DNA from: a virus | Length of the DNA: 46,788 nt | IMG/VR virus record: IMGVR_UViG_3300040801_003297 | Direction: 5' to 3' (one strand) | In this document: piece by piece, positions 1 to 46,788 of the stretch | Layout: each line of letters opens with the position of its first letter | Position numbering within the stretch: the stretch's first letter is position 1 | Translations under genes and position numbers: made by a program | The notes under the pieces: generated by a model | Seen by the model: the letters and a program-made list of their open reading frames with translations, nothing else | What the model was told of the DNA's origin: nothing | Database searches by the model: none

Positions 1-117
1 TCACGCGTAAACTTCATCTTACGAAACGCGTTGATGAAACGCTTCTGCTTCACCTCCATGAGCCGCTCGAGGTTGATGGGATACTTCATCTCAACGTTCT
101 CGATGTTCTCGTACTCA
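1..117. repeat. Terminal direct repeat (copy 1), identical to 46672..46788; marks circular closure or assembly overlap
   Basis: Base-by-base comparison: tcacgcgtaaacttcatcttacgaaacgcg...cgatgttctcgtactca is present at both window ends. Confidence 0.95.
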
Positions 118-755
118 TAGTCCTTCATGAACGACTCGGCGCAGATCCGGACGTAGTCAAGGCGGTCCTTGTCGACCCGCGCTCGATAGCCGAGGTACTT
201 GTAGACGTCGTTGATGCCGTCCATACCCTGGGACTCGGCAGCATACTGGAACATCAGGCCCATCGAGTGTTCGTATCCCTGCTGGCGCTCTATGAGCTCA
301 GGGACGTTGTCCTCGTTGATGCGGTAGAGGCTCATGACTTCTTCGTTGGTGCCGAAGCCGTCGATGACGAGTGTGTGCCATCGGGTATCGACCGCCATGA
401 ACTCCTCGGTGAATGCCAGTGCGCTCCACGCGTGCATGTCGTGATGGGTCAGGCCGTTGGCTTCGGCATAGACCGCGTTAGGGCACAGCTGGCGGAACAG
501 GCCGTAGTTCCAATACTTGCTCTCGTGATTCATGTCAAAGCCGTTGAACCACGAACTGACGAAGAAGGTCTTGACTTGGCTCAGATCGATGTGCTTACCA
601 ATCTCGATGATTGCCTTATGGGGGAATGACGAATCGCTCTTGATGCGAGTCAGTCGCTCCTCCTCATATCCGATGGGCTCACCCGATCTGGTCTCCACTG
701 CGATGGCGCTCGCGTTGTGGCCCAGGGTTAGCAGCATTGCGTATTCTTTTTTCAT
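1..755 (-). CDS. Carbamoyltransferase (NodU/CmcH/TobZ family), N-terminal part; same gene as 45798..46788, joined across the circular junction (about 542 aa in total)
   Basis: Own translation from ATG at 755 (RBS AGAGGA upstream): MKKEYAMLLTLGHNASAIAVETRSGEPIGYEEERLTRIKSDSSFPHKAIIEI... It is open to base 1 and in frame with ORF 45798..46760 (755-89=666 nt). LGHNxSA and EERxTRxKxDxxFP match the Kae1/ASKHA-like N-domain motifs of this family. Confidence 0.85.
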   Translation of the reverse strand, partial: MKKEYAMLLTLGHNASAIAVETRSGEPIGYEEERLTRIKSDSSFPHKAIIEIGKHIDLSQVKTFFVSSWFNGFDMNHESKYWNYGLFRQLCPNAVYAEANGLTHHDMHAWSALAFTEEFMAVDTRWHTLVIDGFGTNEEVMSLYRINEDNVPELIERQQGYEHSMGLMFQYAAESQGMDGINDVYKYLGYRARVDKDRLDYVRICAESFMKDYEYENIENVEMKYPINLERLMEVKQKRFINAFRKMKFTR

Positions 756-784: not shown

Positions 785-3154
785 TCATACACCGGTCACG
801 TAGTAAACGCGACTCTTGTGAATTCGTTCAATAAGTTTTTGCTCAACGGCTGCTCTGATCGCATTCTGGATTTGCCGTTCAGTGTAGTCTAGGAACTCGT
901 CGTGCAGTTCAGAGTAGGGAATCTCCCTCGGGAACTCGTTGTTGACGTACTCTTGGATCTGCTGCATTATTTCATCGGTGTTACCTCGCTTCGTGTCTGA
1001 CCGTATCGTCTCTCGCATCTCTTCATGGAACGCCTCGACCTCCATCGAGTCCGGGGCGATCAGCCCGTCGACGAACCAGATGTACCACTGGCCGCCCACG
1101 TTCTCCTGATGCAGTTGCCCGCTGTTGAGCATTGTCTGCATCGCCTCGTCAAAGGTGCGCTCGTGGTTATTGAACTGCTCGCGGAAGTACGTCTTGAAGT
1201 TGCGCGTTGTCCAGTAGGCCTTCTGCATTGAGTTGAGCGTGATGTGCTCGGTGATGCTAGAGGTGAGATGGTCGACGGCGCTCTGTCTGTTGCTGTCCTC
1301 GAGGTGGGTCTCGACGATGCGTTCCCATGCATCGGCATCTCGCCCCTCGTCGCATCGCTCATAGAGGTGAATGTCGCGTTGGCGCAAGGGCGTCGAAAAC
1401 CCGGGGACGTATTCGGGATCGATCTCAACGCCCTCGAAGACGTAGCTGGTTTTGTCGGTGAACATGTTCGACTTGGCTGTGGCTAGGATCGTATGATGCT
1501 CGACGTAGTGCGGCAAGAGGTAGGTGACATGTCGCGCGACGGTGGTGTGTGCGATTGAGCCGGTCACCTTGTCAAGGCCTCGCCCACCGCTCTTGTTGAA
1601 GTGAGTGATGCCCAGCACACATAGATCGTATTTTTCGGCTAGTCGGTTGAGCGGTGCGAGCGCTTGGTTCATGCTGGTCGTGTTGTGCGAGTCACTGTCT
1701 TGGTTGTGGAGGATGAACATCGTGATCGGGTCGAATATGACGAGCTTCGTATGCGGGTACTTGATGCAGACGTCCTCAAGCTGGCGAAGGCCGTCGGTCA
1801 CGCTAAATCCCTTGAGCTCTTGTTTGCCGCCTTTGCGTTCGCGGACCAAGCCCGCTCGGTAGACGTGGAATCTGCTCAGGTCGGCTTTAGCGAGTTTCAG
1901 CTTGGGGAGGATGGATTGCCTGATGCGCTCCTCGACTGAGAAGTAGATGACGTCACCCGGTTCGCGCTTGACGGGATTGTCGTGATCGCCCATGAACGTG
2001 TCGCCTCTGGTAATGGCGGCGGCGAACTGCATGATGAGCGTCGACTTACCTAAGCCCTGTCGGCCAGCCATGACTGCGTATGCGCCCTTGGGCAACACGT
2101 CTTTATAGAACCACTCGTCTGGCTCGATGTCGTCGTAGCTCAGAGGCTCCTCGACCAGATGCCAGTCGAACTTCGTCTTGTCAAAGTTCTTGTCCGGGGG
2201 CGGCAGGTCCTTGAAGTCATCCTCGGGTGAGACGTGGTTGAGTTTATCGAGCACGTTGGAGGTGAGCTGAGGATTGTGCTCTTTGGCCTGCAAAACCAGA
2301 CTGCCGAATCCCCGCATCTCCCCTTGATAGTTTCCGATCGATTCCCATTTCGCGTCGGTGTAGTCTACGTCATAGAGGGCATTCATCATCGACCAGTCGT
2401 GGAAGAGTTGCCGGCCTTCTTCGCTCCCGTGCGTTGAGCGGTGAATCGCGCACCCGATTGCGAACCACTCGTCGTAGTCGGTGTCATCAGTGTTGGGAAT
2501 GGCGGTGAGTAGATGAGCGACGAGGTCGGGATCAATAGTCTCTTCTTCGTCGTGGACGGTTGACTTGTTCGACTTATTGGACGAGTTGCGTGTCAAGAGT
2601 TGCTCGAGCTCAGGCGTCCAGAACGGTATGTCGTCCGGCATGTTAGTGAATTCGTAAGGCCGGCCGGTGGTGGGGTGTATAGAGGCAGGGATGACGACCT
2701 GCTGATTGACAATAATGTCAACGCCTTCGCCGTAGCGCTTCTGAAGCTGGGATCGCGTAACGAGTGCGTCGGCCGGCTTGCGGAAGTAGAGGTGAAATCC
2801 GCCTCGCGATGATGCGACCTTTGGGATGGTATCGAGGGGCGGTAGTAAGTCTTTGAATTTGTCGAACGTGGCGAGGCCGTCTTTCCCATGCATGTCAACA
2901 TCTATAATCAGATGCTCCCCTGTGGGCGCCCATCCTAAATTGTGTCCTTGACGAACTGCGCGATACGCCTGCCTGAATGTCAGCCCATCGCTTTCACGCC
3001 ATCCGGAGTCAGCAGGTGCCTTTGGGTCTCCCTGGGATCCATCTGCCTTGCGAAGTTTGACGAGCCTGTGGTTATGGCTTAAGTGCCAATCGATCGACCT
3101 CTTGAATTCGTGTGTTAGAAGATCAGCGTCTTCGCGCTTGCTCTTTGAGTTCAC
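785..3154 (-). CDS. Bifunctional primase-polymerase (Prim-Pol) fused to a RecA/DnaB-like (RepA/AAA_25-type) helicase domain
   Basis: 789 aa. N-terminus has HLIIDVDMHGKDG, RGGFHLYFRKP and VIPASIHPTTGRPYEF (prim-pol motifs). Mid-protein Walker A is MAGRQGLGKST, with later VIFDPIT and GITHFNKSG. GTG start overlaps the stop of the upstream small ORF. Confidence 0.85.
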   Translation of the reverse strand: MNSKSKREDADLLTHEFKRSIDWHLSHNHRLVKLRKADGSQGDPKAPADSGWRESDGLTFRQAYRAVRQGHNLGWAPTGEHLIIDVDMHGKDGLATFDKFKDLLPPLDTIPKVASSRGGFHLYFRKPADALVTRSQLQKRYGEGVDIIVNQQVVIPASIHPTTGRPYEFTNMPDDIPFWTPELEQLLTRNSSNKSNKSTVHDEEETIDPDLVAHLLTAIPNTDDTDYDEWFAIGCAIHRSTHGSEEGRQLFHDWSMMNALYDVDYTDAKWESIGNYQGEMRGFGSLVLQAKEHNPQLTSNVLDKLNHVSPEDDFKDLPPPDKNFDKTKFDWHLVEEPLSYDDIEPDEWFYKDVLPKGAYAVMAGRQGLGKSTLIMQFAAAITRGDTFMGDHDNPVKREPGDVIYFSVEERIRQSILPKLKLAKADLSRFHVYRAGLVRERKGGKQELKGFSVTDGLRQLEDVCIKYPHTKLVIFDPITMFILHNQDSDSHNTTSMNQALAPLNRLAEKYDLCVLGITHFNKSGGRGLDKVTGSIAHTTVARHVTYLLPHYVEHHTILATAKSNMFTDKTSYVFEGVEIDPEYVPGFSTPLRQRDIHLYERCDEGRDADAWERIVETHLEDSNRQSAVDHLTSSITEHITLNSMQKAYWTTRNFKTYFREQFNNHERTFDEAMQTMLNSGQLHQENVGGQWYIWFVDGLIAPDSMEVEAFHEEMRETIRSDTKRGNTDEIMQQIQEYVNNEFPREIPYSELHDEFLDYTERQIQNAIRAAVEQKLIERIHKSRVYYVTGV

Positions 3155-3336: not shown

Positions 3337-3418
3337 AGCAGCGATCGTCCTTGCTTGGTTGTGAAAATACCGCAGGGGGTCTGGACTATATACGTCCCCG
3401 TCGCACCTGTAAATCAGT

Positions 3419-3953: not shown

Positions 3954-4451
3954 ATGGCCATAATCAAGGCACGACCAAAAGTGCGCACTGCAGCAGGCAA
4001 AGCGACTGCTGCACCTCGTAAGAAGGGACCGCGTAAGAAGGGAAAGCAGATGCAGTTCCCTGAGTTCCAAGTGCAGGTCGAGTTCGTCTCGCTCATGCGT
4101 ATGTATTATCCCGACCTCTTGATGTTCGCAGTGCCTAACGGTGGGAAGCGCAGCATCCAAGATGCGAGACGATTCAAAGCCATGGGCGTGCTCGCGGGTG
4201 TGTCAGACATCTGTGTGCTCGAGCCCAATGGCGTGTACGCAGGTCTGTGGATCGAGTTCAAAGCCCCGGGCAAGGTCAAGCAGTTGAGCGCAGACCAGAA
4301 GGAGTTCGGTCAGAAGGTACTCGATCGAGGGTTTGAGTTCATCACGTTCGACAACGCCGTGCTCGCACTGATCTATGTGGAGGGCTACATAGGGGTCGAG
4401 CAGAGCAAGCGAGTAGGCGGTAAGGTTACGACTCAGCCGACGTCAGCGTGA
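3954..4451 (+). CDS. VRR-NUC domain nuclease
   Basis: 165 aa with FAVPNGGKRS...GVLAGVSDICVLEPNG...GLWIEFKAPGK..LSADQKEF, the VRR-NUC PD-(D/E)XK pattern. The Lys-rich N-terminal 32 aa may or may not be translated (alternative ATG at MQFPEF). Confidence 0.8.
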   Translation: MAIIKARPKVRTAAGKATAAPRKKGPRKKGKQMQFPEFQVQVEFVSLMRMYYPDLLMFAVPNGGKRSIQDARRFKAMGVLAGVSDICVLEPNGVYAGLWIEFKAPGKVKQLSADQKEFGQKVLDRGFEFITFDNAVLALIYVEGYIGVEQSKRVGGKVTTQPTSA

Positions 4452-29638: not shown

Positions 29639-30085
29639 CTAGTCAAGGCGGCCTGCGCACGTCGGGCCAAGGCCCATTTGGATGCTGCTGGGAACCGTGA
29701 GCGCCCGACCACAACGACCGCAAGTTCCTTCGTGCCAGAACTGCGCCTGCGCGATGCGCTCATCGTCGTCAGCTTTCCAGCGGCCGATGTACCACTCCAA
29801 CGCCTTGAACGCAGGATGCTCGGCGTTGCCTTTGCGGCCGGCGGTGAGGTTCAAGTTGCTGCGCGGCATGAAGCCGATGTACTCGTACGAGTTCTCGTTG
29901 TCGGAGCCGACCAGCACCTTGACGAAGATGAGGCTGTCGTCATCGCTGCGCGAGAGCTTGAACGTGTAGCGCGCTGAGCGGCCGACGAGAGTCAACTTGC
30001 CCTTGCCGCCGTAGAGGTAGGCGATTGAGGCGGTGGGACCGAGCAGGCCGCGACGTTCTTCTTGGATTTCGACTTGAGCATTCAT
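29639..30085 (-). CDS. Hypothetical protein with a C-terminal CxxC...GxGPxC motif (DUF6011-like)
   Basis: Start at ATG 30085 behind the conserved RBS AAAGGACGAAACC. C-terminus is CGRCGRALTVPSSIQMGLGPTCAGRL. Confidence 0.6.
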   Translation of the reverse strand: MNAQVEIQEERRGLLGPTASIAYLYGGKGKLTLVGRSARYTFKLSRSDDDSLIFVKVLVGSDNENSYEYIGFMPRSNLNLTAGRKGNAEHPAFKALEWYIGRWKADDDERIAQAQFWHEGTCGRCGRALTVPSSIQMGLGPTCAGRLD

Positions 30086-30133
30086 GGTTTCGTCCTTTGT
30101 GGTAGTGGGGACCATTCCCCGATTCACATGAAC

Positions 30134-30176: not shown

Positions 30177-32225
30177 TTATTTTCTGTACCTGTAAGCGAG
30201 GTAGCCTTCGGCCTTGAGAGGGAGACGCCGCGGGAGCGCGTTCGTCCAGTCAGGTTGTATCACCATGAGCTCGACGAACTTGTCCAGCGGCATGAAGTCC
30301 GGGCGTTGACTGCTGAGCACTTCGTCATGCACGTTGAGGAGAACGCGGAACATCGCTTCGTACAATGTCTCTTGGCTGAACATGAGCAAGTCACGAGCCG
30401 TTGCCTGTACGATGTTTTCGATGATCTTGCTAGGCGTCATGTTCTGACGAACCCACTGGCTCCTCGCGTTCTCAGCCATTATCGTAGTCGTGTAGATGTC
30501 TTCGCCCCACGGCGCTTTGACCCACTCGTTCTTCGGGGCGTAGTAGGCGAGGAATCTCCCTGAGTGCAGGCGGATCCACAAGTAGCCATGAGCGACCTGG
30601 AAACGCAGGCCCTTGTACTCCATCGTCTTGCCGGGCTTATCGACCGCCTTGATGATCGTGTCTTTGAGGTCGTACCACGATTGGGCTGTGACTTTATACT
30701 GCTGGCGGAATTCCTTGACATTTTGCTTCGCCTGAGCGACCGTCATCGGGATGCCTTTCTGCTGGTTCGTGGCGTGGATCGTTTTCCATCCTGCGCCGAA
30801 CATCGCGCCAAGGATCGTTGCCTTGGATTCTGTCCGAATCACGTCGGTCACCTCATCGATGCCGATGTTGAATTGCTTGGCGGCGAACGCCCGGTATTGG
30901 TCAACGCCGTTTTCGAATACGTCGAGCCCGACCGGATCCTGACAGAGCCAGACCGTCACGATGTTCTCAACACTGGAGAAGTCAGCGCAGTAGAACACCT
31001 CGCCGTCGGGCGGCACGATCATCGCCCGCAAGAGTTGCTTCGCGATGTCGAATGGCGTGCCCCCGTATATCGTCAAGGCCGCTTCGTAGTTCCCGGTCTT
31101 GATGTACTCGATGCAGTCGTCAAGGATGTTGAGACTTTTGCTGAGCGAGTCCCGCGGGAAGTTGTGCAGCTGAAGTCCTGCACCACCATTGCGCCCCGTC
31201 GTTGCTCGGTGGTAGACCATATTGTTGTGCGACTTGCCGTTCCACGCTACGTGGTTCATCGCGTCGAACTTCTTGGTCGAGACTTGGCTGAGCTCTTGCC
31301 GGATGATCAAGAACTCACGAGCATCAGGATCTATGTCCTCGTTGGTCAGGGCCGCGGCGATGTCGTCCTTGGTGTATCCCTCCAGTTGCACGCCTCGGGT
31401 CTCAAGCCATTCCATCGCCTTGTCACGCTGACCGTCGGTCTGCAAGGCTCCGCCTGTCAGTTCCCGGAGTTGTTCGGTCCGCTTTTCTCTCCACCATGAG
31501 AGCATGCTGCGAATCGCCTGAAACGCGTCGACGTCGAGGTTGATCCCTTCTTCATTCATCTTGCACGTCATGCGCCACGTGCGATCTTCGCCTGACCGGA
31601 ATTCAGGTCGGGGAAGCGCGGCAAAGATCTGGCACTCGACGATGACGTCGTCGGCGCAGTACGACGCGAACTTGCGAGCCTCATCAGGAAAGTCCGCCAT
31701 GCGGTTGCGGGTGGACTTGTCCTTCTTGGTGGGCTTGCGCGGCTTGGAGAACTTGTTGATGAGGCGCGTGCCGCTGGTGTCCTTCTGCTTCGCCAGCTTG
31801 AGCGCCTTGGCGCATTTATCCAGCGCGCCGGGGAGAGCGTGGATCCGACAAAGCGCGCCGGTGTCGCACCATGATTCGAACGGGACCTCATCCCAACCCA
31901 GGGAAGGGACGGCGACGTGATTCCAGATCGCCCTGTCGAACTCGCTGTTGAAAGCCCGAATGACCCAGCCTCTGGCAATGTAGGTGAAAAGTTCGACCGG
32001 TGGCGGATCGCCTTCAACCCACTTGTGCACCGTCTTGCCTTCGTCGGCGGTCCAGCATAGAATCAAGATCTCGGTCGATGGGTCCATGGCGTATCGCCAC
32101 GAGCCCGCTTTCTTGACGTCGATTTCCGAGTACGTCTCGAAGTCGATCGACAGCATCTTCCCCGGGATCAACCGAAGCTTAGAGTCAGGGACCTCAAAGA
32201 GGCCCCTCCTAGTTGCTGATGTCAT
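30177..32225 (-). CDS. DNA polymerase, family A, with an N-terminal 3'-5' exonuclease domain
   Basis: 682 aa. Exo motif MLSIDFETYS. Pol motif A YCADFSSVENIV, motif B ESKATILGAMFGAG, motif C LNVHDEV. Confidence 0.9.
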   Translation of the reverse strand: MTSATRRGLFEVPDSKLRLIPGKMLSIDFETYSEIDVKKAGSWRYAMDPSTEILILCWTADEGKTVHKWVEGDPPPVELFTYIARGWVIRAFNSEFDRAIWNHVAVPSLGWDEVPFESWCDTGALCRIHALPGALDKCAKALKLAKQKDTSGTRLINKFSKPRKPTKKDKSTRNRMADFPDEARKFASYCADDVIVECQIFAALPRPEFRSGEDRTWRMTCKMNEEGINLDVDAFQAIRSMLSWWREKRTEQLRELTGGALQTDGQRDKAMEWLETRGVQLEGYTKDDIAAALTNEDIDPDAREFLIIRQELSQVSTKKFDAMNHVAWNGKSHNNMVYHRATTGRNGGAGLQLHNFPRDSLSKSLNILDDCIEYIKTGNYEAALTIYGGTPFDIAKQLLRAMIVPPDGEVFYCADFSSVENIVTVWLCQDPVGLDVFENGVDQYRAFAAKQFNIGIDEVTDVIRTESKATILGAMFGAGWKTIHATNQQKGIPMTVAQAKQNVKEFRQQYKVTAQSWYDLKDTIIKAVDKPGKTMEYKGLRFQVAHGYLWIRLHSGRFLAYYAPKNEWVKAPWGEDIYTTTIMAENARSQWVRQNMTPSKIIENIVQATARDLLMFSQETLYEAMFRVLLNVHDEVLSSQRPDFMPLDKFVELMVIQPDWTNALPRRLPLKAEGYLAYRYRK

Positions 32226-35592: not shown

Positions 35593-35633
35593 ATACTACT
35601 ATGACTTCGTGAGTTAGTACACTACTTTGCGAA
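35593..35633 (-). promoter_or_regulatory. Early promoter-operator cassette, copy F (divergent; -10 is TAGTAT)
   Basis: Minus strand: TTCGCAAAGTAGTGTACTAACTCACGAAGTCATAGTAGTAT. It overlaps the 3' end of the deaminase gene. Confidence 0.5.
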
Positions 35634-36060
35634 CCCACTCGCGAGCATTTTCGCCACTTGCCAACCATAGCTCTCGCGCGTGGATGTGAGTGTACTCGTC
35701 AGCGTAGACGATCCTCTTGGCTGAGGTGTTCATCAGCAGCTTAACGCAGCCGACGCAAGGCGAGGTCGTGCAGTAGACGGACCAGATCTGGTGGACGTCG
35801 CTACACTGGAGAAGCGCGTTGGCCTCGGCATGTATTGCCTCGCATAATTCTAGGCCGGTGCCTGAGGGCAAATGGGCGCCCGGACAGGCCCTGTCTATAC
35901 AGTGCGTCTGGCCTGCCGCGACGCCGTTGTACCCGGTAGCGAGCACGTGGAGCCGCTCGTTAATCAGGATGCACCCTACTTCCCGCCTCCGGCACGTAGC
36001 CCGCGTAGCAACCTCTCTAGCCAGCCTGAGGAAGTACGTATCGACATCTGGCCTGCTCAT
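35614..36060 (-). CDS. dCMP deaminase (cytidine/deoxycytidylate deaminase zinc-binding fold)
   Basis: VGCILINE...LATGYNG, HAEANAL and PCVGCVKLL (H-A-E and PCxxC zinc motifs). ATG at 36060 is preferred over GTG at 36069. Confidence 0.85.
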   Translation of the reverse strand: MSRPDVDTYFLRLAREVATRATCRRREVGCILINERLHVLATGYNGVAAGQTHCIDRACPGAHLPSGTGLELCEAIHAEANALLQCSDVHQIWSVYCTTSPCVGCVKLLMNTSAKRIVYADEYTHIHARELWLASGENAREWVRKVVY

Positions 36061-36125
36061 GCCAGCCACCGGAAAAAGACGACCAGAGCCGCCGTGAGGG
36101 CTATCGTGGCGAGTAGTCCTAGCAT
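36057..36125 (-). CDS. Possible 22-aa transmembrane micro-ORF
   Basis: Own translation: MLGLLATIALTAALVVFFRWLA. Its stop TGA overlaps the deaminase ATG (ATGA). No clear RBS. Confidence 0.2.
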   Translation of the reverse strand: MLGLLATIALTAALVVFFRWLA

Positions 36126-36138
36126 CGGCTCGCTGTGC

Positions 36139-36429
36139 TCATTGAGATCCATCGTCCGTCCTCCCTTCGGGGTGATCCTCAGGTCGGTACCTGTTGGCGA
36201 GATAGTAGGCGTGCTGCCCGCACTCCGAGATCACTTCGGCTGAATCGTTGTAGTGCCCGGCGCGGACAGTCTCTTTCGCCAGTTGCATGCACTGGACGAA
36301 AAGGCGCTCCCGGTATGCGCCGTAGCCTCTTTGGCGTGTCGGGTTGGTGTTCTCGCCGCAAGCAGTCAGTAACACGATCAGCAGCACTACGAGAATCGAG
36401 ATCAATGTGGATCGTCTAAACATAGTCAT
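36139..36429 (-). CDS. Small lipoprotein (hypothetical)
   Basis: MTMFRRSTLISILVVLLIVLLTACGENT has a signal peptide with lipobox LTAC. The ATG shares one base with the upstream stop. Confidence 0.6.
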   Translation of the reverse strand: MTMFRRSTLISILVVLLIVLLTACGENTNPTRQRGYGAYRERLFVQCMQLAKETVRAGHYNDSAEVISECGQHAYYLANRYRPEDHPEGRTDDGSQ

Positions 36430-36632
36430 CACCTGTCGAACATCTGCGAAAGCACGTGCTTCGCTCCTCTGTCAAACGGCGTGGGATCCATCGGGTCGTT
36501 AACGTGGTCCCAGGCCTCATGAGCGAGTCCTTCTGCCATTTGCTCCTGCGCCCACTCTACGCCTGCCAGCCACTCTTTTTTGTAGTTGCGGTTGCGGTAC
36601 CAGTGGACAAATCCTCGTATGAAATTGATCAT
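36429..36632 (-). CDS. Hypothetical 67-aa protein
   Basis: ATGA overlap with the upstream gene; no motif. Confidence 0.5.
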   Translation of the reverse strand: MINFIRGFVHWYRNRNYKKEWLAGVEWAQEQMAEGLAHEAWDHVNDPMDPTPFDRGAKHVLSQMFDR

Positions 36633-36823
36633 AGCGAAATGTCCATGATCGCGTCACGAAGTTCTTCGGTGCGCTCGCCTTTGTTGAACCTGTCGCGACA
36701 CGGCGTGATTGCGAAAGCCATAGCGAACAGTCCTGCCGACCCGGTTTCGGCGTAAGCTTTTTCGCAAGCTTCTAAGCGCTCTTCGACTGCTACCCAGTCT
36801 ATGTTGTGGATGTCGTTTTTCAT
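36629..36823 (-). CDS. Hypothetical 64-aa protein
   Basis: ATG 36823 (MKNDIHNIDW...) forms an ATGA overlap with the SEC-C protein stop. Confidence 0.5.
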   Translation of the reverse strand: MKNDIHNIDWVAVEERLEACEKAYAETGSAGLFAMAFAITPCRDRFNKGERTEELRDAIMDISL

Positions 36824-37044
36824 CAGGCATACCCGCTCCAGCAGCATCGTTTGAACTTTTTACCGGACCCACAGACGCAGGGCTTGTTGCGCATGCTGTT
36901 CTTGCGTCGCTTCGCCCCCATCGGCTGCAGTTCTTCGAACTCGCGTTCGCTTAAGGGGAGCAGTCTCCGGCCCTCGCTTTCGGCGCGGCGCGCAGCTGCG
37001 GCTAATCCTACGCCTTGATGAATCGTTCCTCGTTTTACGTCCAT
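36823..37044 (-). CDS. Small SEC-C motif protein
   Basis: C-terminus KPCVCGSGKKFKRCCW is the SEC-C metal-binding motif; RBS is AGGAG. Confidence 0.6.
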   Translation of the reverse strand: MDVKRGTIHQGVGLAAAARRAESEGRRLLPLSEREFEELQPMGAKRRKNSMRNKPCVCGSGKKFKRCCWSGYA

Positions 37045-37053
37045 AGCGATCTC

Positions 37054-37305
37054 CTAGTTAATTTCATGCGCCGGCACGTCCGGCATCCCTTGACTCCAAT
37101 GCTCAAGCAAAGCCTTCAGAGCGTCAGCGACCGCCTTGCGCTCGCAGTTCGATATATAGCTGCATCGGCTGTCGTCAGTCGTCTGGAAAACGACTAGCGC
37201 GAACCCAATGTCGTCGCGGCCTGATACTTTTTGCAGATCGCGGCTTATCCGCTTCGCGAGTGTTTGAAGCTGCTTCGACACAGCTCGGTCTGTCTGGTTA
37301 GTCAT
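37054..37305 (-). CDS. Hypothetical 83-aa protein
   Basis: ATG-initiated ORF in an operon context; no motif. Confidence 0.5.
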   Translation of the reverse strand: MTNQTDRAVSKQLQTLAKRISRDLQKVSGRDDIGFALVVFQTTDDSRCSYISNCERKAVADALKALLEHWSQGMPDVPAHEIN

Positions 37306-37306
37306 G

Positions 37307-37480
37307 CTATTTCGCCCTCGGCCAGTAGTCTACCAGAATGTGACCGCACTCTTCGCATTGTTCGGTGCTGACGGTCTCGATGATTCCCATGTGACCGCAC
37401 TCCGGGCATTGCTGGTCCTTATGCGTGACGAGGATTCTGCCCGTGTCGATCGTGCCTGTGTCGTTCTGTCGGTACGTCAT
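37307..37480 (-). CDS. 57-aa zinc-ribbon protein
   Basis: MTYRQNDTGTIDTGRILVTHKDQQCPECGHMGIIETVSTEQCEECGHILVDYWPRAK has CPxC...CxxC. ATGA overlap with the hydroxymethylase stop. The rest of ORF-track entry 37307..38044 is an out-of-frame artefact. Confidence 0.55.
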   Translation of the reverse strand: MTYRQNDTGTIDTGRILVTHKDQQCPECGHMGIIETVSTEQCEECGHILVDYWPRAK

Positions 37481-38274
37481 CCTCTGCGCTCCTGCATCCA
37501 CGCCGCGAAAGGGTACTCTTCGTGACAGTAGTTCGTATCGCCTGTAGTAAGAAACGCGAACTCGACCGGATCGCGTGCTCGCGGCATCGGGATTTCGGTG
37601 TAGCCGTCGACGCCGTCTTGGACCAGCATGCTCAACATCTCGAAGTGCCGCTCGTAGACGTGGAACGAATCGACCTTGTGGGTGTAGGTGCCCATCGTCA
37701 AATCGGGATACGCCCTCTTGCGTAGCGCAGCCAGCACCGCCTCTTGGAGAAGTGAGAAACAGAAGACGTCGTTGGTCATGCCGAAGATCGCATCGTTGCT
37801 TCGCATCGAGACAGACATTTTCAGCGTGCCATTTCGGATCCTGAAGTTGAGACCGTAGGTGCACACCACGTCGGGATTGTCCTCGCGCAAGTGACCGCGG
37901 TTGAGCAGAACCATGCACGCCCGCCGGGAATCGGCATCGCGCATCAGCTCTTCGACGACCCATGCGAACTGACGCTGGCCGAAGATGTATTGCCCGTAGT
38001 TGGAGTTGAATCCCAGGTCCCTGGGATCTTTGATCTTCGCCCACATGGTGGCGTGCTTTTCGATGCTGGTGTCGTAGCGATCACCTCGCAGATACCAGAG
38101 GAACTCTTCGATGCAGTACGCAAGGTTGAGACCGCGAGCACGAAACGAAGTAAGACGCTCGTAGGGTGCCAGCGTGAATTGATAGTCCTCGAGCTCGAGT
38201 ATCGACTGACCTCTGGGTGAGCACGGTCGACCATGTTCAAGCAGATCTTCGTAAACTCTTAAAAAGTTCGACAT
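37477..38274 (-). CDS. ThyA-fold deoxynucleotide hydroxymethylase, T4 gp42-like (predicted dCMP hydroxymethylase)
   Basis: 265 aa. FNSNYGQYIF, ADSRRACMVLLN, VVCTYGLNFRIRNGTLKMSVSMRSNDAIFGMTNDVFCFSLL and FHVYERHF align without gaps to E. coli ThyA [9 protein letters not shown]...[20 protein letters not shown]. Catalytic Cys is kept, His147 becomes Thr, and Asn177 becomes Asp, as in T4 gp42 (MCT... RSNDVVFGFRND). Confidence 0.8.
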   Translation of the reverse strand: MSNFLRVYEDLLEHGRPCSPRGQSILELEDYQFTLAPYERLTSFRARGLNLAYCIEEFLWYLRGDRYDTSIEKHATMWAKIKDPRDLGFNSNYGQYIFGQRQFAWVVEELMRDADSRRACMVLLNRGHLREDNPDVVCTYGLNFRIRNGTLKMSVSMRSNDAIFGMTNDVFCFSLLQEAVLAALRKRAYPDLTMGTYTHKVDSFHVYERHFEMLSMLVQDGVDGYTEIPMPRARDPVEFAFLTTGDTNYCHEEYPFAAWMQERRG

Positions 38275-38767
38275 TGAGCAAGTCCTCTTCGGAATCCTGG
38301 GTGTAATCGTACCGCACGACGTTCGCGTTTCGGTACAGCGTAGAATCGAATGTCGCGTCGTAAAGAATGCGTAGTCTCTCCAAGCTGGCTTCGATGTCAG
38401 CGACGTATTCCGGTGTGTCGTACACCTCGGGCTCGTGCTTGACTTTGTCTAGATCGCCGACGCGACAATAGATGATAAGCGGCGCCACTTCGTCGAGGAG
38501 CTTGCGCTGCGCCTCGTAGTATTCCACATCCGATACGAGTTGCCGGCCGAACACTAGACCGTAGATCGGCTCGCTGATTTGCGTGACGCGATCCTGAATG
38601 CAAGGGAGCTGCGCGCGTTTGAAGCACTCGTCCATGTCGGCACGAACGCCTCCGGGCGTGCCGGCGGATCGACCTATCGCGAAGATCGCCAGCTTAGGGA
38701 ATATGGTTGCAAGCCGAATCGACAATGAGCTCTTGCCCATGCCGTCTGGTCCTTCAAGTATGATCAT
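38237..38767 (-). CDS. P-loop dNMP kinase, thymidylate-kinase-like
   Basis: Start at the internal ATG 38767 (MIILEGPDGMGKSS Walker A, then a DRV..ISEPIYG Tmk-like DR motif). 14-nt overlap with the upstream gene and 38-nt overlap with the hydroxymethylase start. Confidence 0.7.
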   Translation of the reverse strand: MIILEGPDGMGKSSLSIRLATIFPKLAIFAIGRSAGTPGGVRADMDECFKRAQLPCIQDRVTQISEPIYGLVFGRQLVSDVEYYEAQRKLLDEVAPLIIYCRVGDLDKVKHEPEVYDTPEYVADIEASLERLRILYDATFDSTLYRNANVVRYDYTQDSEEDLLNVELFKSLRRSA

Positions 38768-39131
38768 TGGGTTGCGTCCAGGGAGAGAGGTCCGGGGATT
38801 CCCAGCCCTCAGGTTTACGGAGATCGAGCTCGAACCCACCGCGCTTGCCATTGGGCCCGAGCTCTTTCTTCATGTTGGCAAGGACGACTTCCCGGAACCC
38901 ATCCATCGGCAGGCCTTGGCGTTCAAGCGTACCGATGACAAACACCAGCAGATCCAACAGAGCGTCGTACTCGTCTTCGAGGTCGTCGGCGAGTAGATAC
39001 TCAGTCGCCTCTTCGATGAAGCACGCAAAGCGGAATCGCTTCTCGTCGAGTTCGAGATTGCGCGGCCCGCCTTCGTACTGGATACCGAAGAGACGATGCT
39101 GGTCCTTGACGAGGTTCAGTAAGTCGTCCAT
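38754..39131 (-). CDS. All-alpha NTP pyrophosphohydrolase (MazG/dimeric-dUTPase/dCTPase-like)
   Basis: 125 aa. FIEEATEYLLADDLEDEYDALLDLLVFVIGT (EExxE...D..D metal-binding helices) and VVLANMKKELGPNGKRGG...KPEGWESPDL are typical of phage MazG-like enzymes. Confidence 0.7.
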   Translation of the reverse strand: MDDLLNLVKDQHRLFGIQYEGGPRNLELDEKRFRFACFIEEATEYLLADDLEDEYDALLDLLVFVIGTLERQGLPMDGFREVVLANMKKELGPNGKRGGFELDLRKPEGWESPDLSPWTQPNDHT

Positions 39132-40663: not shown

Positions 40664-40689
40664 TGGGTGGTTGCCCCGATCACATAAAC

Positions 40690-40732
40690 ATTCTACTGCT
40701 ACTTCGTGAAAGTGTACACTGTTTTTCGTGAA
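40690..40732 (-). promoter_or_regulatory. Early promoter-operator cassette, copy G2
   Basis: Minus strand: TTCACGAAAAACAGTGTACACTTTCACGAAGTAGCAGTAGAAT, about 65 bp upstream of G1. Confidence 0.65.
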
Positions 40733-41495: not shown

Positions 41496-41549
41496 GATTT
41501 CGTCCTTTCTGGTTCCTGCACCGAGGCCCTTCCTCGATTGCATGAACTT

Positions 41550-41591
41550 ATTCTACTGCGATCTCACGAGTTGTACACTGTTTTTCGTGAT
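41550..41591 (-). promoter_or_regulatory. Early promoter-operator cassette, copy H
   Basis: Minus strand: TCACGAAAAACAGTGTACAACTCGTGAGATCGCAGTAGAAT. Confidence 0.65.
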
Positions 41592-41592
41592 T

Positions 41593-42489: not shown

Positions 42490-42541
42490 GATCATCGTCC
42501 TTTCTGGTTTTGCTTGGGGCCTTTCCCCGTTGCATGTGATC

Positions 42542-42582
42542 ATTCTACTGCTTTTCACGAAGTTGTACACTAATTTCGCGAA
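42542..42582 (-). promoter_or_regulatory. Early promoter-operator cassette, copy I
   Basis: Minus strand: TTCGCGAAATTAGTGTACAACTTCGTGAAAAGCAGTAGAAT. It begins right after the stop of ORF 42583..42759. Confidence 0.65.
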
Positions 42583-42759
42583 TTATTTTTCGTCTTCTTT
42601 TCTCCTGTGTCGGTCAAATCTTTCTAGGCACCTCTCCGCCACATCCTTCGCTTCGTTAAGTCTATCAGACAATTCTGAGCGGAGCTGCCGATTCTCCTGC
42701 TCTTGCTGTCGTTTTTGCTTGAAGCATTTTGCGTGTTCGTCTTCGGCGTAGGTTGTCAT
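42583..42759 (-). CDS. Hypothetical 58-aa charged protein
   Basis: ATG 42759 with RBS GAGG (MTTYAEDEHAKCFKQKRQQEQENRQL...). Confidence 0.45.
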   Translation of the reverse strand: MTTYAEDEHAKCFKQKRQQEQENRQLRSELSDRLNEAKDVAERCLERFDRHRRKEDEK

Positions 42760-42769: not shown

Positions 42770-43918
42770 TCACTTCTTCGCGGACTCGAAATCTTTCTTT
42801 GCGTTGTCTGCCGTGTCGTAGTCTTGGCGGGTGCTGTTCTCGTCAACGACGATCGGGCCTCCCTCCTGCTTCTTAATCAACTTCTCGAGCTCGACAGGGT
42901 CGCGGCCTTTTTCCTTGAACAGCTTCTCCATCTCGCTCACGCTGCGGGGCTTCTCAACGACCTGCCACGTCTTGGGCACTTTCAGGTCAGCGAACTTCTT
43001 GACCATCGTCTCCTCGCTAAATTTCCAGAGGCGACGCGTGTTCCCTTTGGCGAGACGTTTGCCTTTCACCTTCTTGCCTTCCAGCAAGCGTCTCTCGACC
43101 TCGCCTTCGACAGCGCTGATGAACGCCTTGAGCTGTGGAACCATTGCTGCTTTTTCGGCCAGTGTTTTCGACGCCATTCGTTTGATCCCCTTGAAGTCGT
43201 CAGCCGCCGCGTTAGTGGCGACCTCTTCTATCTTAGGACATAAGCTTGCGGCTGGGCACCAGCGGCAATTGTCCTCGCTCGGCACGAATCGCACGACACC
43301 TTTCTCGATGTCTTCGATCGTCTTGATGACTTCGCCCTCGAACGCTTTGATCTTTTTCAGCGGCACCTGTTGGAGGGCGAATACATTGTGCGGTGGCTGG
43401 CAGATACCGACCTCGATCGACCGGATGTCATGGATCACCTCAACGTCGCGGATCACGCCTGCCGCGTATATTGCCAGCTGCGAGTTGTTCACTGGCGAGA
43501 CTTTCTGGCCGGCGCCCGTCTTCAGGTCGATGATCTTGATGTCAGCAACCCTGGGATCGCTCAGGTCCGGCGTGATGATGACGACGTCTGCCGTGCCCCA
43601 GCAATCATCGAGCACTCGAGCCTTGTGCTCCACGAGCAGTTCTGAGTGCGGCTCGACATGCTTGTGCACGAAGTCAATGTAGGGTTTGACGATCTCGTCG
43701 ATCTGCTGGCGAGTGATCTTCACGCCGTTAAACGTCTTGCCTGCGGCCGACGCCAGTTTAAGCTTGCCGAGCAACACCTTCTCTCCGACTTCATGGAGAG
43801 CGGTACCGAGTTCTGATGCAGCCGAAGAGCTGCGGGTGAGACCCGAGACATCGATCTTCATCGACGCCGTGCACGAGAGCCATCGGCTCGAGGCACTTGG
43901 AGAATAAAATGCATGCAT
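42770..43918 (-). CDS. PD-(D/E)XK (Cas4-like) nuclease, DUF2800 family
   Basis: Start at ATG 43918 (RBS AGAGGA). N-terminus is MHAFYSPSASSRWLSCTAS, with GTADVVII...IIDLKTGAG and a C-terminal CRWCPAASLCP Cys cluster. Confidence 0.75.
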   Translation of the reverse strand: MHAFYSPSASSRWLSCTASMKIDVSGLTRSSSAASELGTALHEVGEKVLLGKLKLASAAGKTFNGVKITRQQIDEIVKPYIDFVHKHVEPHSELLVEHKARVLDDCWGTADVVIITPDLSDPRVADIKIIDLKTGAGQKVSPVNNSQLAIYAAGVIRDVEVIHDIRSIEVGICQPPHNVFALQQVPLKKIKAFEGEVIKTIEDIEKGVVRFVPSEDNCRWCPAASLCPKIEEVATNAAADDFKGIKRMASKTLAEKAAMVPQLKAFISAVEGEVERRLLEGKKVKGKRLAKGNTRRLWKFSEETMVKKFADLKVPKTWQVVEKPRSVSEMEKLFKEKGRDPVELEKLIKKQEGGPIVVDENSTRQDYDTADNAKKDFESAKK

Positions 43919-43968: not shown

Positions 43969-45801
43969 TTATGCGGCTTCGGCGATTGCCTCGTCGCACA
44001 TTTCCATGAACTCTTCGTACATGTCCTCCTCGAGTTCAGACACCTTGGCGACGTCAAACTCGCCCAGGATTTCGTTGAGCTCTTCGCGGCTGGTCGCCTT
44101 CAGAGTTTCACTGGCTTTCGCTCGTACTTTATCGAACGGCTTCTCTTCGTCGTCGGCTGAGACTTTGCGACGTGTGCGGCGAGTCGGCTTGGCCTCTTCT
44201 TCCTCTTCATCGTCTTCGGCTTTCTTGGCGGCTCGTCGACGTCGGGTTGGTTTCGGCTCATCCTCTTCCTCCTCGTCTTTCTTGGCACTACGGCGAGTGC
44301 GACGCTTGGGCTTTTCTTCCTCCTCGTCTTCGTCTTTCTTCGCGCTGCGGCGAGTACGGCGCTTCGGCGTTTCCTCTTCTTCCTCTTCGCCTTCGCCGTC
44401 GAACGGAATCTCCGCGTCTACCTCGGGCTCTTTCTTGGCTCGACGTGAGCGACGGGGTTTAGGCTTTTCTTCGGCCTCCTCTGTGGCGTCGTCCAGAAGT
44501 GTATCAATCTCATCGGCCGCGTTACGCAGCATGAGGCTCAGTCGTGTGACAAGTTCGTTTATTTCCATAGTAGGCAACTCGCTCTCTTGTAAAAGTTGGG
44601 ATGTAACACTTTGCTTCTCTAACGCCCGCTTCACCTGATACTCGTCAATCGATCCTCGGATCGTTACGATGTCAGCCTCCACGGTTCCTGTCTGCCCAAT
44701 CCGATGAGCGCGATCGGTTGCTTGGTCAATATCACCCGGCACCCAACTGCTCTCGGCGAGCAAAACTCTTTGTGCTGCGGTCAGTGTCAACCCGACACCT
44801 CCCGCGCTAATTCCTATGACGATAAGTCGGCACTCGTCCTGATTCTGAAATATCCTCTCAGCCTCCTTCTTCTTGGCGTTGGAGACGCCTCCCATAATAC
44901 CGACTACACCTAGGGATGAATACTTTTCGAGAAGCGGCTCGAGCATTTCTGCTCGGTGGTGGCCGAACACGATCAGCTTGTCGTCTCTCGTTGCGAAGTG
45001 GTGATCGATGATCTCGCATACGGCGGGGAACTTCACCATGGCGTGCAGTCGCATCACAGTGGACAACGCCTCGAACGCCACATCAGGCGCGACGTTCTTG
45101 AACTCCTCGAGGTCGTACTCTTTCTCTTCCGGCGGCAACTCCAGATCCAGTGAGAGGACGCGGTAGTGCTTGGGCGGCAATTGCTTGAGCACCTTCTTCT
45201 TGGTGAAGCGGATCATATGCGGCGCGATGATGTCTCGCAACTGATCGAGGTTTGAGGCGCCGTTGACATCGAGCCCGTAGCTGGTTTTTCTGGCGGCACA
45301 GAACCTGTGAACGAAACTGTAGTAGCCGCGGTCGTACGCGCCAATGGCATCGAGAATCGGATAGATCTCAACCGGGCGTGACGGGATCGGCGTGCCTGAC
45401 AGCAGCATCACTTTCTGGATGCACTCGATTTCAGCGATGACCGCCTTCGTGCGCTTGGCGTCGAGGTTCTTCGCGTAGTGGAACTCGTCGACAATGAACG
45501 TCTGCGCCTGAGCGACGTCGAGATCCAGATTGATCAAGAAGTGATAGCTCATAATGAAGACGTCAGCCGCTAAGAACAAATCGGCTTGATCTTTAACGAT
45601 GACCGGCTTGAGCCCACACTCGACAGCTTCGTCGAACCAGTTGTACTGCAAGAAAGCCGGGCAGACAATCGTGGCTGGTGGATCCAGTGCACGCATCGCG
45701 ACCATTGTCTTACCCAACCCCTGCTCAAGGCAGAGGAGGGTAACGTCACGCTTCCGAGCTTGGTCTATCGCGTACTGCTGGAAGCGGTACGGCTTTTTCA
45801 T
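43969..45801 (-). CDS. SNF2-family helicase with a ~200-aa repetitive charged C-terminal extension
   Basis: LEQGLGKT (motif I), IVDEFHYAKN (DExH), LLSGTPIPSRP and QATDRAHRIGQ (motif VI). The tail carries 5 repeats of an acidic run followed by KPKRRTRRSAKK. Confidence 0.85.
   Translation of the reverse strand: MKKPYRFQQYAIDQARKRDVTLLCLEQGLGKTMVAMRALDPPATIVCPAFLQYNWFDEAVECGLKPVIVKDQADLFLAADVFIMSYHFLINLDLDVAQAQTFIVDEFHYAKNLDAKRTKAVIAEIECIQKVMLLSGTPIPSRPVEIYPILDAIGAYDRGYYSFVHRFCAARKTSYGLDVNGASNLDQLRDIIAPHMIRFTKKKVLKQLPPKHYRVLSLDLELPPEEKEYDLEEFKNVAPDVAFEALSTVMRLHAMVKFPAVCEIIDHHFATRDDKLIVFGHHRAEMLEPLLEKYSSLGVVGIMGGVSNAKKKEAERIFQNQDECRLIVIGISAGGVGLTLTAAQRVLLAESSWVPGDIDQATDRAHRIGQTGTVEADIVTIRGSIDEYQVKRALEKQSVTSQLLQESELPTMEINELVTRLSLMLRNAADEIDTLLDDATEEAEEKPKPRRSRRAKKEPEVDAEIPFDGEGEEEEEETPKRRTRRSAKKDEDEEEEKPKRRTRRSAKKDEEEEDEPKPTRRRRAAKKAEDDEEEEEAKPTRRTRRKVSADDEEKPFDKVRAKASETLKATSREELNEILGEFDVAKVSELEEDMYEEFMEMCDEAIAEAA
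44143..44481 (-). repeat. Imperfect tandem coding repeats (~57-60 bp unit) in the SNF2 helicase tail
   Basis: Protein units: EEKPKPRRSRRAKKE / EETPKRRTRRSAKKDEDEEE / EKPKRRTRRSAKKDEEEEDE / PKPTRRRRAAKKAEDDEEEEE / AKPTRRTRRKVSADDEE. Confidence 0.8.
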
Positions 45802-46788
45802 ACAAAGCAGTAAGTCGAGAAGGCCGGCTGCTTAAGCGTATGACGCGTCAGCCATGTCGCGTGCACTCGTCGTAGTCCCGCAATGTCGAAGATGATCGGA
45901 TCACCGTGAAGGTTCAAGCTGGTGTTGATCAAGCACTCGTAGTTGACCATCTCCAGAAGAGCCACCATCGTCGCGTCTGTCATGACGTCGACAATCTGCG
46001 GTCGCCCGGTATAAGCCTCGCCATCCTTGAGCGCAGCGCCTGAGACTTCCTCGCCTTTCCCATGCTGAAACTCATGAGCGCAGACCATGAATCTGTCGGT
46101 GCCGATGACGCTTGTCAGTATCTTCTTGTCGAAGAGCCTGCGCGATGCGCCGTGTGTCATCACAGGAGCCATCGGCATGACCGTGTTGCGGTCGTTAAGG
46201 TCATTGATCGCCTCGACGTGCTTCATCGTGGGAGGCGCGAGAGTAGTCGTCTTGCATAACGCCCTGGGACCGAACTCCATCTCGCCTCGCATGATGTTGA
46301 CGATCTCGCCGTTGTTCAGCTTGTCGGCGATTTCCTTGATGACGTAAGGGAACTCTTTCTGCTTGAAGACTTGGAAGTTCGTCATGCCTAGCTGGTCCAT
46401 CGGTGTGATCGTGTCAGGCCTTGTGCCCCAGCACAGATCGCCGAAGCGGAAACGGCCTTTGCCGGCGTACTCACGATACGCTCCGATCGCTGCGCCTTGG
46501 TCACCAGCCAGAGGCATGACGCTGAAGCGGTCCATGTACTTGGCGATGCGGCCGTTTAGGCGGACATTGTAGAAGCAGCCACCGGCGACCATGAGGTTCG
46601 TGATCTTGTGCTTGGAAATGATGTCGAACACGTACTTCTCGAGGACAAACTGGAGGAACCAGCCCATCTCCTCACGCGTAAACTTCATCTTACGAAACGC
46701 GTTGATGAAACGCTTCTGCTTCACCTCCATGAGCCGCTCGAGGTTGATGGGATACTTCATCTCAACGTTCTCGATGTTCTCGTACTCA
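45798..46788 (-). CDS. Carbamoyltransferase (NodU/CmcH/TobZ family), C-terminal part; continues from 1..755
   Basis: MVAGGCFYNVRLNG, MPLAGDQGAAIGA, GEMEFGPRALCKTTTLAPP...MPMAPVM and SLNLHGDPI are carbamoyltransferase middle and C-domain motifs. The stop overlaps the SNF2 helicase ATG (ATGA). Confidence 0.85.
   Translation of the reverse strand, partial: EYENIENVEMKYPINLERLMEVKQKRFINAFRKMKFTREEMGWFLQFVLEKYVFDIISKHKITNLMVAGGCFYNVRLNGRIAKYMDRFSVMPLAGDQGAAIGAYREYAGKGRFRFGDLCWGTRPDTITPMDQLGMTNFQVFKQKEFPYVIKEIADKLNNGEIVNIMRGEMEFGPRALCKTTTLAPPTMKHVEAINDLNDRNTVMPMAPVMTHGASRRLFDKKILTSVIGTDRFMVCAHEFQHGKGEEVSGAALKDGEAYTGRPQIVDVMTDATMVALLEMVNYECLINTSLNLHGDPIIFDIAGLRRVHATWLTRHTLKQPAFSTYCFV
46672..46788. 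repeat. Terminal direct repeat (copy 2), identical to 1..117
   Basis: Exact 117-bp identity with the window start. Confidence 0.95.

Follow-up and report, generated by a model that had tools for sequence, protein, structure and literature searches.

A probable phage 5-hydroxymethylcytosine O-carbamoyltransferase encoded between primase-helicase and SNF2 helicase genes

The viral DNA considered here (IMG/VR record IMGVR_UViG_3300040801_003297; "the window" denotes the whole stretch of 46,788 nt) carries an open reading frame whose sequence suggests, with a probability that we put at about 0.8, that it encodes a phage 5-hydroxymethylcytosine (5hmC) O-carbamoyltransferase of the DNA-modifying clade of the NodU/CmcH/TobZ family (Yang et al. 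2021). The 5hmC carbamoyltransferase and its product, 5-carbamoyloxymethylcytosine, were first reported, with biochemical proof, in 2021 (Yang et al., eLife 10:e70021, PMC8670742). This characterised enzyme carbamoylates 5hmdC in DNA or 5hmdCTP in vitro with carbamoyl phosphate and ATP, prefers ssDNA over dsDNA and has no activity on 5hmdUTP (PMC8670742). The original prediction had put the carbamoylated base forward as a candidate new modification, a claim of novelty that fails because both base and enzyme are published: the window protein is a further member of a published system and the modification itself is not new.

Comparison of the window ends showed that the first 117 nt are exactly identical to the last 117 nt, positions 46672..46788 being a copy of 1..117, as expected if the genome is circular or has terminal redundancy. 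The window is thus the complete genome of a phage, about 46.7 kb long (46,671 nt as a circle without the copy), and the 117 nt repeated at its ends are an assembly overlap. A megablast search of positions 1-20000 against 50,697 phage records gave zero matches, and the window phage therefore has no close cultured relative among them. Once the end copy is removed, the carbamoyltransferase ORF can be read on the minus strand across the junction, from 755 to 1 and then from 46671 to 45798, giving 1,629 nt, or 542 aa plus stop (MKKEYAMLLTLGHNAS...STYCFV), and this reconstruction bears out the protein of about 542 aa that had been proposed to span the circular junction. The 5' part (1..755, minus strand) begins with the ATG at 755-753, holds codons 1-251 in full and codon 252 up to its second base, and is supported by the Pfam Carbam_trans_N match; the 3' part (45798..46671, minus strand) encodes the YrdC-like Carbam_trans_C domain and includes the stop codon at 45798-45800. 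We set the start at 755 because an AGAGGA Shine-Dalgarno sequence lies 6 nt upstream of this ATG and the homologues start at the same place, and a longer ORF from 788 (MMTTRQ...) was rejected on these grounds. The sequence database has the protein in a truncated form of 320 aa, for which an exact-sequence look-up gave no contig.

The 542-aa protein has the two-domain architecture of the family, with a Kae1/ASKHA-like Carbam_trans_N domain (PF02543, 3e-15) followed by a YrdC-like Carbam_trans_C domain (PF16861, 1.3e-23), and it matches PHROG 1601, "Nol-like carbamoyltransferase" (3e-59). It aligns over its full length with the enzyme of Yang et al. (284 bits, 37% identity, E 2e-93), whereas TobZ, NovN and GdmN reach only 48-63 bits (E 1e-12 to 1e-16) and the Nol-like enzymes of cyanophages and pelagiphages 22-24% identity; it therefore stands nearer to the Yang et al. 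enzyme than to family members with another specificity, although at 37% identity its choice of acceptor may have shifted. Residues H104, H108, D132 and D309, conserved in all aligned sequences, correspond to TobZ H114, H118, D137 and D338, the catalytic metal ligands of that enzyme (Parthier et al. 2012), with numbering that matches the alignment. The positions of TobZ W408, G421 and R423 are those reported to discriminate modified-DNA contigs (Yang et al. 2021, PMC8670742), and here the window protein has I378, C391 and T393, identical to the characterised enzyme; the C and T at the last two positions are invariant in 20 clade members, whereas G and R stand there in TobZ, P-SSM2, HTVC008M and RsoM2USA. 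A comparison of structures had been suggested for this protein, and its AlphaFold model (pLDDT 88.9, pTM 0.90) has a predicted TobZ-type fold, with TM scores of 0.70-0.77 against TobZ, GdmN, NovN and VtdB (0.76 for TobZ).

All six Pfam domains that are published as co-occurring in this system, PF02543, PF16861, PF00303, PF01503, PF00383 and PF14437, are present in the window, and a minus-strand block at 35614..39131 encodes a PRA-PH/MazG-like protein, a P-loop kinase-like protein, a thymidylate-synthase homologue and a dCMP deaminase. The MazG/PRA-PH-like nucleoside triphosphate pyrophosphohydrolase (38754..39131) matches PF01503 with 27.3 bits (cut-off 21.3), PHROG 671 and, in the PDB, the MazG-like protein DR2231 (2e-5); PF01503 is a published partner domain of the 5hmC carbamoyltransferase (Yang et al. 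2021, PMC8670742). The kinase-like protein (38237..38767, MIILEGPDGMGKSS...) has no Pfam match and no PDB sequence match, but its match to PHROG 761, "thymidylate kinase" (4.9e-11), and the presence of homologues in the same slot, between the MazG and synthase-homologue genes, in relatives suggest a 5hm-dCMP kinase. The thymidylate-synthase homologue (37477..38274; PF00303, 5e-18) carries Cys138 and Asp169, which align with T4 gp42 and MilA, Asp169 standing at the position of E. coli ThyA N177. Its best PDB matches are the CMP hydroxymethylase MilA (1e-21) and T4 gp42 (2.8e-13), and we consider it to be a probable dCMP 5-hydroxymethylase with Cys138 as the likely catalytic residue. The block ends with a zinc-dependent dCMP deaminase (35614..36060), identified by PF00383 and PF14437, by PHROG 174 and by matches to dCMP deaminases in the PDB (3.6e-16). 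The ORFs scanned gave no match to a glycosyltransferase, to a DHFR or to another thymidylate synthase, and the proposed T4-like hydroxymethylpyrimidine gene set lacking a glycosyltransferase is recovered at the level of gene homologues.

The survey covered 80 related IMG/VR viral loci with a carbamoyltransferase. The original prediction had called for such a survey of carbamoyltransferases and gp42-like hydroxymethylases. A synthase homologue lies at most 10 kb from the carbamoyltransferase gene in 73 of the 80 loci, on the same strand in every one of these and separated from it by a median of 1,090 nt, and 70 of the 73 linked synthase homologues have Asp at the N177 position. The usual order in the 73 loci is carbamoyltransferase-MazG-kinase-synthase-deaminase. 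Among the related loci surveyed, only in the window's own lineage has the gene moved between Prim-Pol and SNF2; the carbamoyltransferase thus need not adjoin the hydroxymethylase module.

In the window the carbamoyltransferase gene follows a Prim-Pol/PriCT_2/AAA_25 primase-helicase gene (785..3154, minus strand, assigned by Pfam), immediately upstream, whose end at 785 is separated from the carbamoyltransferase start codon by 29 nt, and its stop codon TGA (45798-45800) overlaps the ATG (45801-45799) of an SNF2-family helicase gene (43969..45801, minus strand; Pfam SNF2-rel_dom and Helicase_C) as ATGA, an arrangement suggestive of translational coupling. The position proposed for the gene between Prim-Pol and the SNF2 helicase, with an ATGA overlap, is thus correct. 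Downstream of SNF2 lies a DUF2800/PD-(D/E)XK nuclease gene (42770..43918, minus strand; Pfam 1.1e-55). A consensus scan gave a sigma-70-like promoter match upstream of Prim-Pol (TTTACA-17-TATAGT, 10/12, at 3385..3413, minus strand), a candidate start for a transcription unit running through Prim-Pol, carbamoyltransferase, SNF2 helicase and nuclease; between Prim-Pol and the carbamoyltransferase start the sequence scan revealed no minus-strand terminator-like or promoter-like site, and a single weak minus-strand promoter match (9/12, 45240-45212) falls inside the SNF2 gene. The gene order is the same in close relatives, and the Prim-Pol neighbour is also found in relatives L001-L004. The replisome-operon setting is accordingly real as a position, but it is a rearrangement specific to the window's lineage and not a defining feature of the gene, which other relatives place near the synthase homologue. 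A replisome-associated, co-replicative role, in which the enzyme would carbamoylate 5hmC on nascent ssDNA at the fork and not in the dNTP pool, fits the preference of the characterised homologue for ssDNA over dsDNA; we nevertheless hold it to be unlikely.

Other functions were considered for the carbamoyltransferase and rejected on the evidence that bears on each. The module could be an Xp12-like 5-methylcytosine (5mC) system, with the synthase homologue producing 5m-dCMP, the deaminase converting 5m-dCTP to dTTP and the carbamoyltransferase acting on some other acceptor. A dCMP hydroxymethylase and an Xp12-type dCMP methylase both have Asp177 and are hard to tell apart with confidence by sequence; Asp177 synthase homologues with deaminases made 5mdCMP in 5 of 7 published tests, and the synthase-deaminase adjacency, which Xp12 has as well, is typical of 5mC phages. 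However, the window synthase homologue reaches 97 bits with MilA and 90 bits with Aeromonas gp42, against 68 bits with the Xp12 enzyme and 44 bits with ThyA, it shares the Cys-Thr motif common to gp42 and MilA where the Xp12 enzyme has Cys-Pro, and no counterpart of the DHFR gene that adjoins the Xp12 synthase was detected among the window's ORFs. An O-carbamoyltransferase, moreover, would find no hydroxyl on a methyl group, yet the clade is almost always synthase-linked, and we regard the 5mC system as very unlikely.

Still less probable, in our estimation, are two readings that keep O-carbamoylation and change the acceptor. The original prediction had allowed for the 5-CH2OH group of either dC or dU, and 5-carbamoyloxymethyl-dU could be formed from 5-hydroxymethyl-dU, e.g. 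after deamination of 5hm-dC nucleotides, since some phage dCMP-deaminase homologues are published as deaminating 5hmdC species in vivo and the ORFs scanned in the window include no thymidylate synthase of its own. The dC option is the one that stands, on the full-length homology to the proven enzyme; against dU are the Asp, cytosine-directed type of the synthase homologue, the inactivity of the characterised homologue on 5hmdUTP (PMC8670742) and the discriminating residues that the window enzyme has in common with that homologue. An equally improbable reading is an auxiliary metabolic gene with no role in DNA, for a small-molecule or polysaccharide O-carbamoyltransferase like NodU, TobZ or cyanophage Nol: the Pfam architecture and fold are those of TobZ, GdmN and NovN, and the PHROG label of the family is "moron/auxiliary metabolic gene", but identity to such enzymes is 19-24%, the discriminating positions differ, and throughout the clade the gene stays linked to a dCMP-modifying module. 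Nor is there a sugar, lipid or antibiotic context: no sugar, antibiotic or polysaccharide biosynthesis genes were detected in the genome, as had been anticipated from the carbamoyltransferase neighbours, which are Prim-Pol, SNF2 helicase and nuclease.

For the 5hmC O-carbamoyltransferase reading, the following pathway can be proposed. The MazG-like pyrophosphohydrolase would act as a dCTPase, removing dCTP and supplying dCMP, which the Asp-bearing synthase homologue, by homology to T4 gp42 and MilA, would convert with methylene-tetrahydrofolate to 5-hydroxymethyl-dCMP. The P-loop kinase-like protein, together with the host NDP kinase, would then yield 5hm-dCTP, and the phage family A DNA polymerase (30177..32225, minus strand; Pfam DNA_pol_A), provided that it accepts the modified dCTP, would incorporate it. 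Carbamoyl transfer in TobZ proceeds through a carbamoyl-adenylate, and by the same mechanism the YrdC-like C-terminal domain may form carbamoyl-adenylate from carbamoyl phosphate and ATP, and the Kae1-like, metal-containing N-terminal domain may pass the carbamoyl group to the 5-CH2OH of 5hm-dCTP or of ssDNA at the fork. The product would be DNA with C replaced by 5-carbamoyloxymethyl-C, presumably protected against restriction. The dCMP deaminase would most simply supply dUMP to the host thymidylate synthase, as in T4.

The clade-specific enzyme and the module also occur together in cultured phages, namely Xanthomonas phage Xp15, Acinetobacter phages HHU4, Effie and MD-2021a, and Bacteroides phages BF486P2 and BF503P1, so 5-carbamoyloxymethylcytosine could be sought directly in virion DNA. 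In the literature searched, we found no report of its detection in virions and nothing relevant on DNA modification of Xp15, Effie, HHU4 or BF486P2; even for the phage of the published enzyme, 5-carbamoyloxymethyl-dC in virion DNA is only predicted. The window adds one divergent, complete-genome example to this published phage hypermodification system.

With the Yang et al. 2021 enzyme (554 aa, from a sewage phage contig) the window protein shares architecture, metal ligands and the I/C/T residues, and the two systems also have in common the Asp177 synthase homologue, PRA-PH and dCMP deaminase partners. The window protein is divergent in sequence, and some 7.5 kb separate its gene, between Prim-Pol and SNF2 helicase, from the other genes of the module. 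TobZ, NovN, GdmN and VtdB of the NodU/CmcH family resemble it in fold, in the Kae1-like and YrdC-like pair, in the metal site and presumably in carbamoyl-adenylate chemistry, but with only about 20% identity; their acceptors are small-molecule natural products, they differ from the DNA clade in having G and R in place of C and T, and they are encoded in biosynthetic clusters and not in nucleotide-metabolism modules. In Xanthomonas phage Xp12, as in the window, an Asp177 synthase homologue adjoins a dCMP-deaminase homologue, but Xp12 carries a DHFR and lacks a carbamoyltransferase, and the hydroxymethylases are closer to the synthase homologue of the window than the Xp12 one is. The T4 5hmC pathway comprises the gp56 dCTPase, gp42 dCMP hydroxymethylase, gp1 dNMP kinase, cd dCMP deaminase and the alpha- and beta-glucosyltransferases. 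The likeness to T4 is one of logic, namely dCTP removal, hydroxymethylation by an Asp synthase homologue, phosphorylation, incorporation and then decoration of the 5-CH2OH group: the window virus is a phage of about 47 kb with a lambda-like terminase and a tape-measure protein (sipho-type), its pyrophosphohydrolase is MazG/PRA-PH-like and not of the gp56 type, its kinase-like protein is not detectably related to gp1 in the searches run here, and the decoration would be carbamoyl where T4 uses glucose.

The carbamoyltransferase of the window is encoded by a single minus-strand ORF that runs from 755 to 1 and then from 46671 to 45798 (542 aa, with the duplicate end removed). Its ATG at 755 agrees with the N-termini of homologues and is preceded by AGAGGA with a 6-nt spacing. 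End comparison showed that window positions 1..117 are an exact copy of 46672..46788 (a 117-nt direct overlap); the genome is therefore circular or terminally redundant, 46,671 nt long and written with an overlap. Upstream, 29 nt apart, lies a Prim-Pol/PriCT_2/AAA_25 primase-helicase gene (785..3154) and downstream a SNF2-family helicase gene (43969..45801), the ATG of which overlaps the carbamoyltransferase TGA, forming ATGA. Rebuilding the ORF across the junction confirmed the coordinates, length and neighbours of the original prediction. Gene callers split this ORF, which is represented in the public record by no more than a 320-aa fragment. In the region coding for the C-terminal tail of the SNF2 protein (window 44160-44480, minus strand), a unit of 54-57 nt is repeated in tandem about four times; the encoded repeats are alternately basic and acidic (KPKRRTRRSAKKDEEEEE). 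The remaining genome carries an ordinary tailed-phage gene set (portal, protease, major head protein, tape measure, tail proteins), with lambda/Gifsy-like small and large terminase subunits (about 50% identity) and small accessory proteins: a 73-aa protein with a SEC-C zinc motif at its end (36823..37044, minus strand), a DUF6011 protein (29639..30127, minus strand) and a VRR-NUC nuclease (3954..4451, plus strand).

The protein has the Pfam domains Carbam_trans_N and Carbam_trans_C and matches PHROG 1601 (3e-59); its closest solved structures by sequence are NovN, TobZ and GdmN (E 1e-16 to 1e-12). The AlphaFold model (pLDDT 88.9, pTM 0.90, 20 homologues as input) resembles TobZ, GdmN, NovN and VtdB with TM scores of 0.70-0.77 at about 20% identity. 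The metal ligands of TobZ are reportedly H114, H118, D137 and D338. With the numbering offset checked in the alignment, the corresponding positions are kept as H104, H108, D132 and D309, which, from this TobZ assignment, we take to be the metal ligands of the window enzyme.

Yang et al. (eLife 2021, PMC8670742) screened metagenomes for phage DNA with modified cytosine by a genotype-phenotype approach. Modified contigs were strongly enriched in carbamoyltransferase domains, and LC-MS showed that one expressed 554-aa enzyme, given carbamoyl phosphate and ATP, turns 5hmdC into 5-carbamoyloxymethyl-dC. This enzyme prefers single-stranded to double-stranded DNA, also acts on 5hmdCTP, is weaker on RNA and 5hmCTP, and does not use 5mdCTP or 5hmdUTP (PMC8670742). 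The window protein aligns with it end to end (37% identity, 284 bits, E 2e-93), a similarity far exceeding that to any carbamoyltransferase of other specificity. At the three positions that tell apart the enzymes of modified contigs (TobZ W408, G421 and R423; PMC8670742), it has I378, C391 and T393, the same residues as the published enzyme, and the last two are invariant in the clade alignment (n=20 sequences). By contrast, G and R occupy these two positions in TobZ and in the P-SSM2, HTVC008M and RsoM2USA enzymes labelled "Nol-like". Carbamoyl-adenylate chemistry has been shown for TobZ-type enzymes (PDB structures). The window enzyme is a divergent new member of the published 5hmdC carbamoyltransferase system. 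The gene is real, and carbamoylation of a 5-CH2OH group to 5-carbamoyloxymethyl-dC, as had been proposed, is probably the right chemistry, judging from the identity to an enzyme that performs it; the claimed novelty of base and enzyme is not upheld, as both were published in 2021 (PMC8670742), and this is a rediscovery, not a new modification. Full replacement of C by 5-carbamoyloxymethylcytosine in phage is a prediction of these authors (PMC8670742); the present phage may likewise have its C wholly replaced, and the modified base would be protective.

Every published partner domain (PF00303, PF01503, PF00383, PF14437) is found in the window by Pfam. The MazG-like/PRA-PH protein (38754..39131; PF01503, 27.3 bits, cut-off 21.3) would act as a dCTPase, and the P-loop protein encoded between it and the synthase homologue, which matches PHROG 761 "thymidylate kinase", may fill the kinase role. 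The synthase homologue (37477..38274; PF00303) has as top solved relatives the CMP hydroxymethylase MilA (1e-21) and the T4 dCMP hydroxymethylase gp42 (2.8e-13), above true thymidylate synthases, and possesses a catalytic Cys138 and, at the E. coli N177 position, Asp169, the cytosine-specifying change. According to a 2024 preprint, 5mdCMP is the product of several such Asp177 homologues that are paired with deaminases, and a dCMP deaminase is encoded here too (35614..36060, minus strand; PF00383 and PF14437). However, pairwise scores are higher with MilA (97 bits) and a gp42-type enzyme of an Aeromonas phage (90 bits) than with SPO1 gp29 (73 bits), the Xp12 5mC synthase (68 bits) or canonical ThyA (44 bits), and the window protein has the Cys-Thr motif of gp42 and MilA, the corresponding residues being Cys-Pro in Xp12 and Cys-His in ThyA. 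Scores and motif point to hydroxymethylation without proving it; a hydroxymethyl product is better argued from the co-encoded O-carbamoyltransferase, because this enzyme needs a hydroxyl acceptor. The deaminase is present, yet a thymidylate synthase of the phage's own was not found in the window; its candidate substrates are dCMP or 5hm-dC nucleotides, and some phage dCMP deaminases act on 5-substituted dC nucleotides (2024 preprint). Homology, conserved ligands, signature residues, gene content and linkage are what this analysis establishes.

Using the clade alignment to scan IMG/VR, we collected 80 loci. In 73 of them a synthase homologue lies no more than 10 kb from the carbamoyltransferase, always on the same strand and downstream in 63 (median gap 1,090 nt); four of the other seven end within 1 kb of the carbamoyltransferase. 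The specificity position is Asp in 70 of the 73, and the "GAD" read in the remaining three looks like an alignment shift. The commonest layout is a contiguous carbamoyltransferase-MazG-kinase-synthase-deaminase block, which two cultured phages, Xp15 and Acinetobacter HHU4, have as well, with a variant containing two Asp-type synthase homologues in Bacteroides phage BF486P2. Bacteroides-phage-like loci (L007, L011, L018, L024, L026, L030, L031, L033, L037-L039, L066) have two different synthase homologues close to the carbamoyltransferase gene. Each has Asp at the N177 position, and the motif MRSSNFxTLLPYDAFMFS occurs in the second type. The cultured phages found to carry the system are a better place to study the base in virions, the nucleotide-versus-DNA step and the deaminase substrate.

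Three close relatives (enzyme 45-49% identical) share the window order: Prim-Pol, an optional N6/N4 methyltransferase, carbamoyltransferase, SNF2, DUF2800 nuclease, SSB, PRA-PH, kinase-like, synthase homologue, deaminase, DUF932 and Pol A. The closest relative (L001, enzyme 59% identical) has the same order up to the kinase-like gene, its locus ending before the synthase slot; it also has a gene for ThyX, the flavin-dependent thymidylate synthase (PF02511, 10480-11184), of which there is none in the window. The N6/N4 DNA methyltransferase gene of relatives (L002 3804-4568, L003 2514-3278, L004 9231-9989) sits between Prim-Pol and the carbamoyltransferase, where the window has just a 29-nt gap. 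At 7.5 kb, the carbamoyltransferase-synthase separation exceeds all others seen and is restricted to the window's own lineage; the proposed replisome placement, real as regards the Prim-Pol and SNF2 flanks and the ATGA overlap, is therefore a rearrangement and not a hallmark. We infer co-transcription of the Prim-Pol, carbamoyltransferase, SNF2 and nuclease genes: apart from a weak match inside the SNF2 gene, the sole sigma-70-like match near this unit lies upstream of Prim-Pol (3385-3413), and the repeated early-promoter-type element of the window (seven to nine sites, 30.1 to 42.6 kb) was not found within the unit. This intergenic element of about 80 nt precedes early and replication genes (30096-30176, 32505-32548, 33128-33208, 33760-33843, 34524-34607, 35555-35635, 40652-40732, 41523-41606 and 42515-42598) and reads, on the minus strand, TTCGCGAAAAACAGTGTACA-N16/17-TAGAAT; a GGGGA..TCCCC hairpin and a AAAGGACGAAATCATG ribosome-binding region come next. 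Its 19-nt core occurs seven times, compared with a chance expectation of 0.01. The element has the look of a promoter/leader family specific to the phage.

Among cultured phages, the closest match to the window synthase homologue (49% identity) is that of the Ralstonia jumbo phage RsoM2USA. The carbamoyltransferase of this phage, by contrast, belongs to the distant type with the G/R signature, and over 100 kb separate it from the synthase homologue (L094 5959-6795 and L090 5668-7239). RsoM2USA may use a different modification chemistry.
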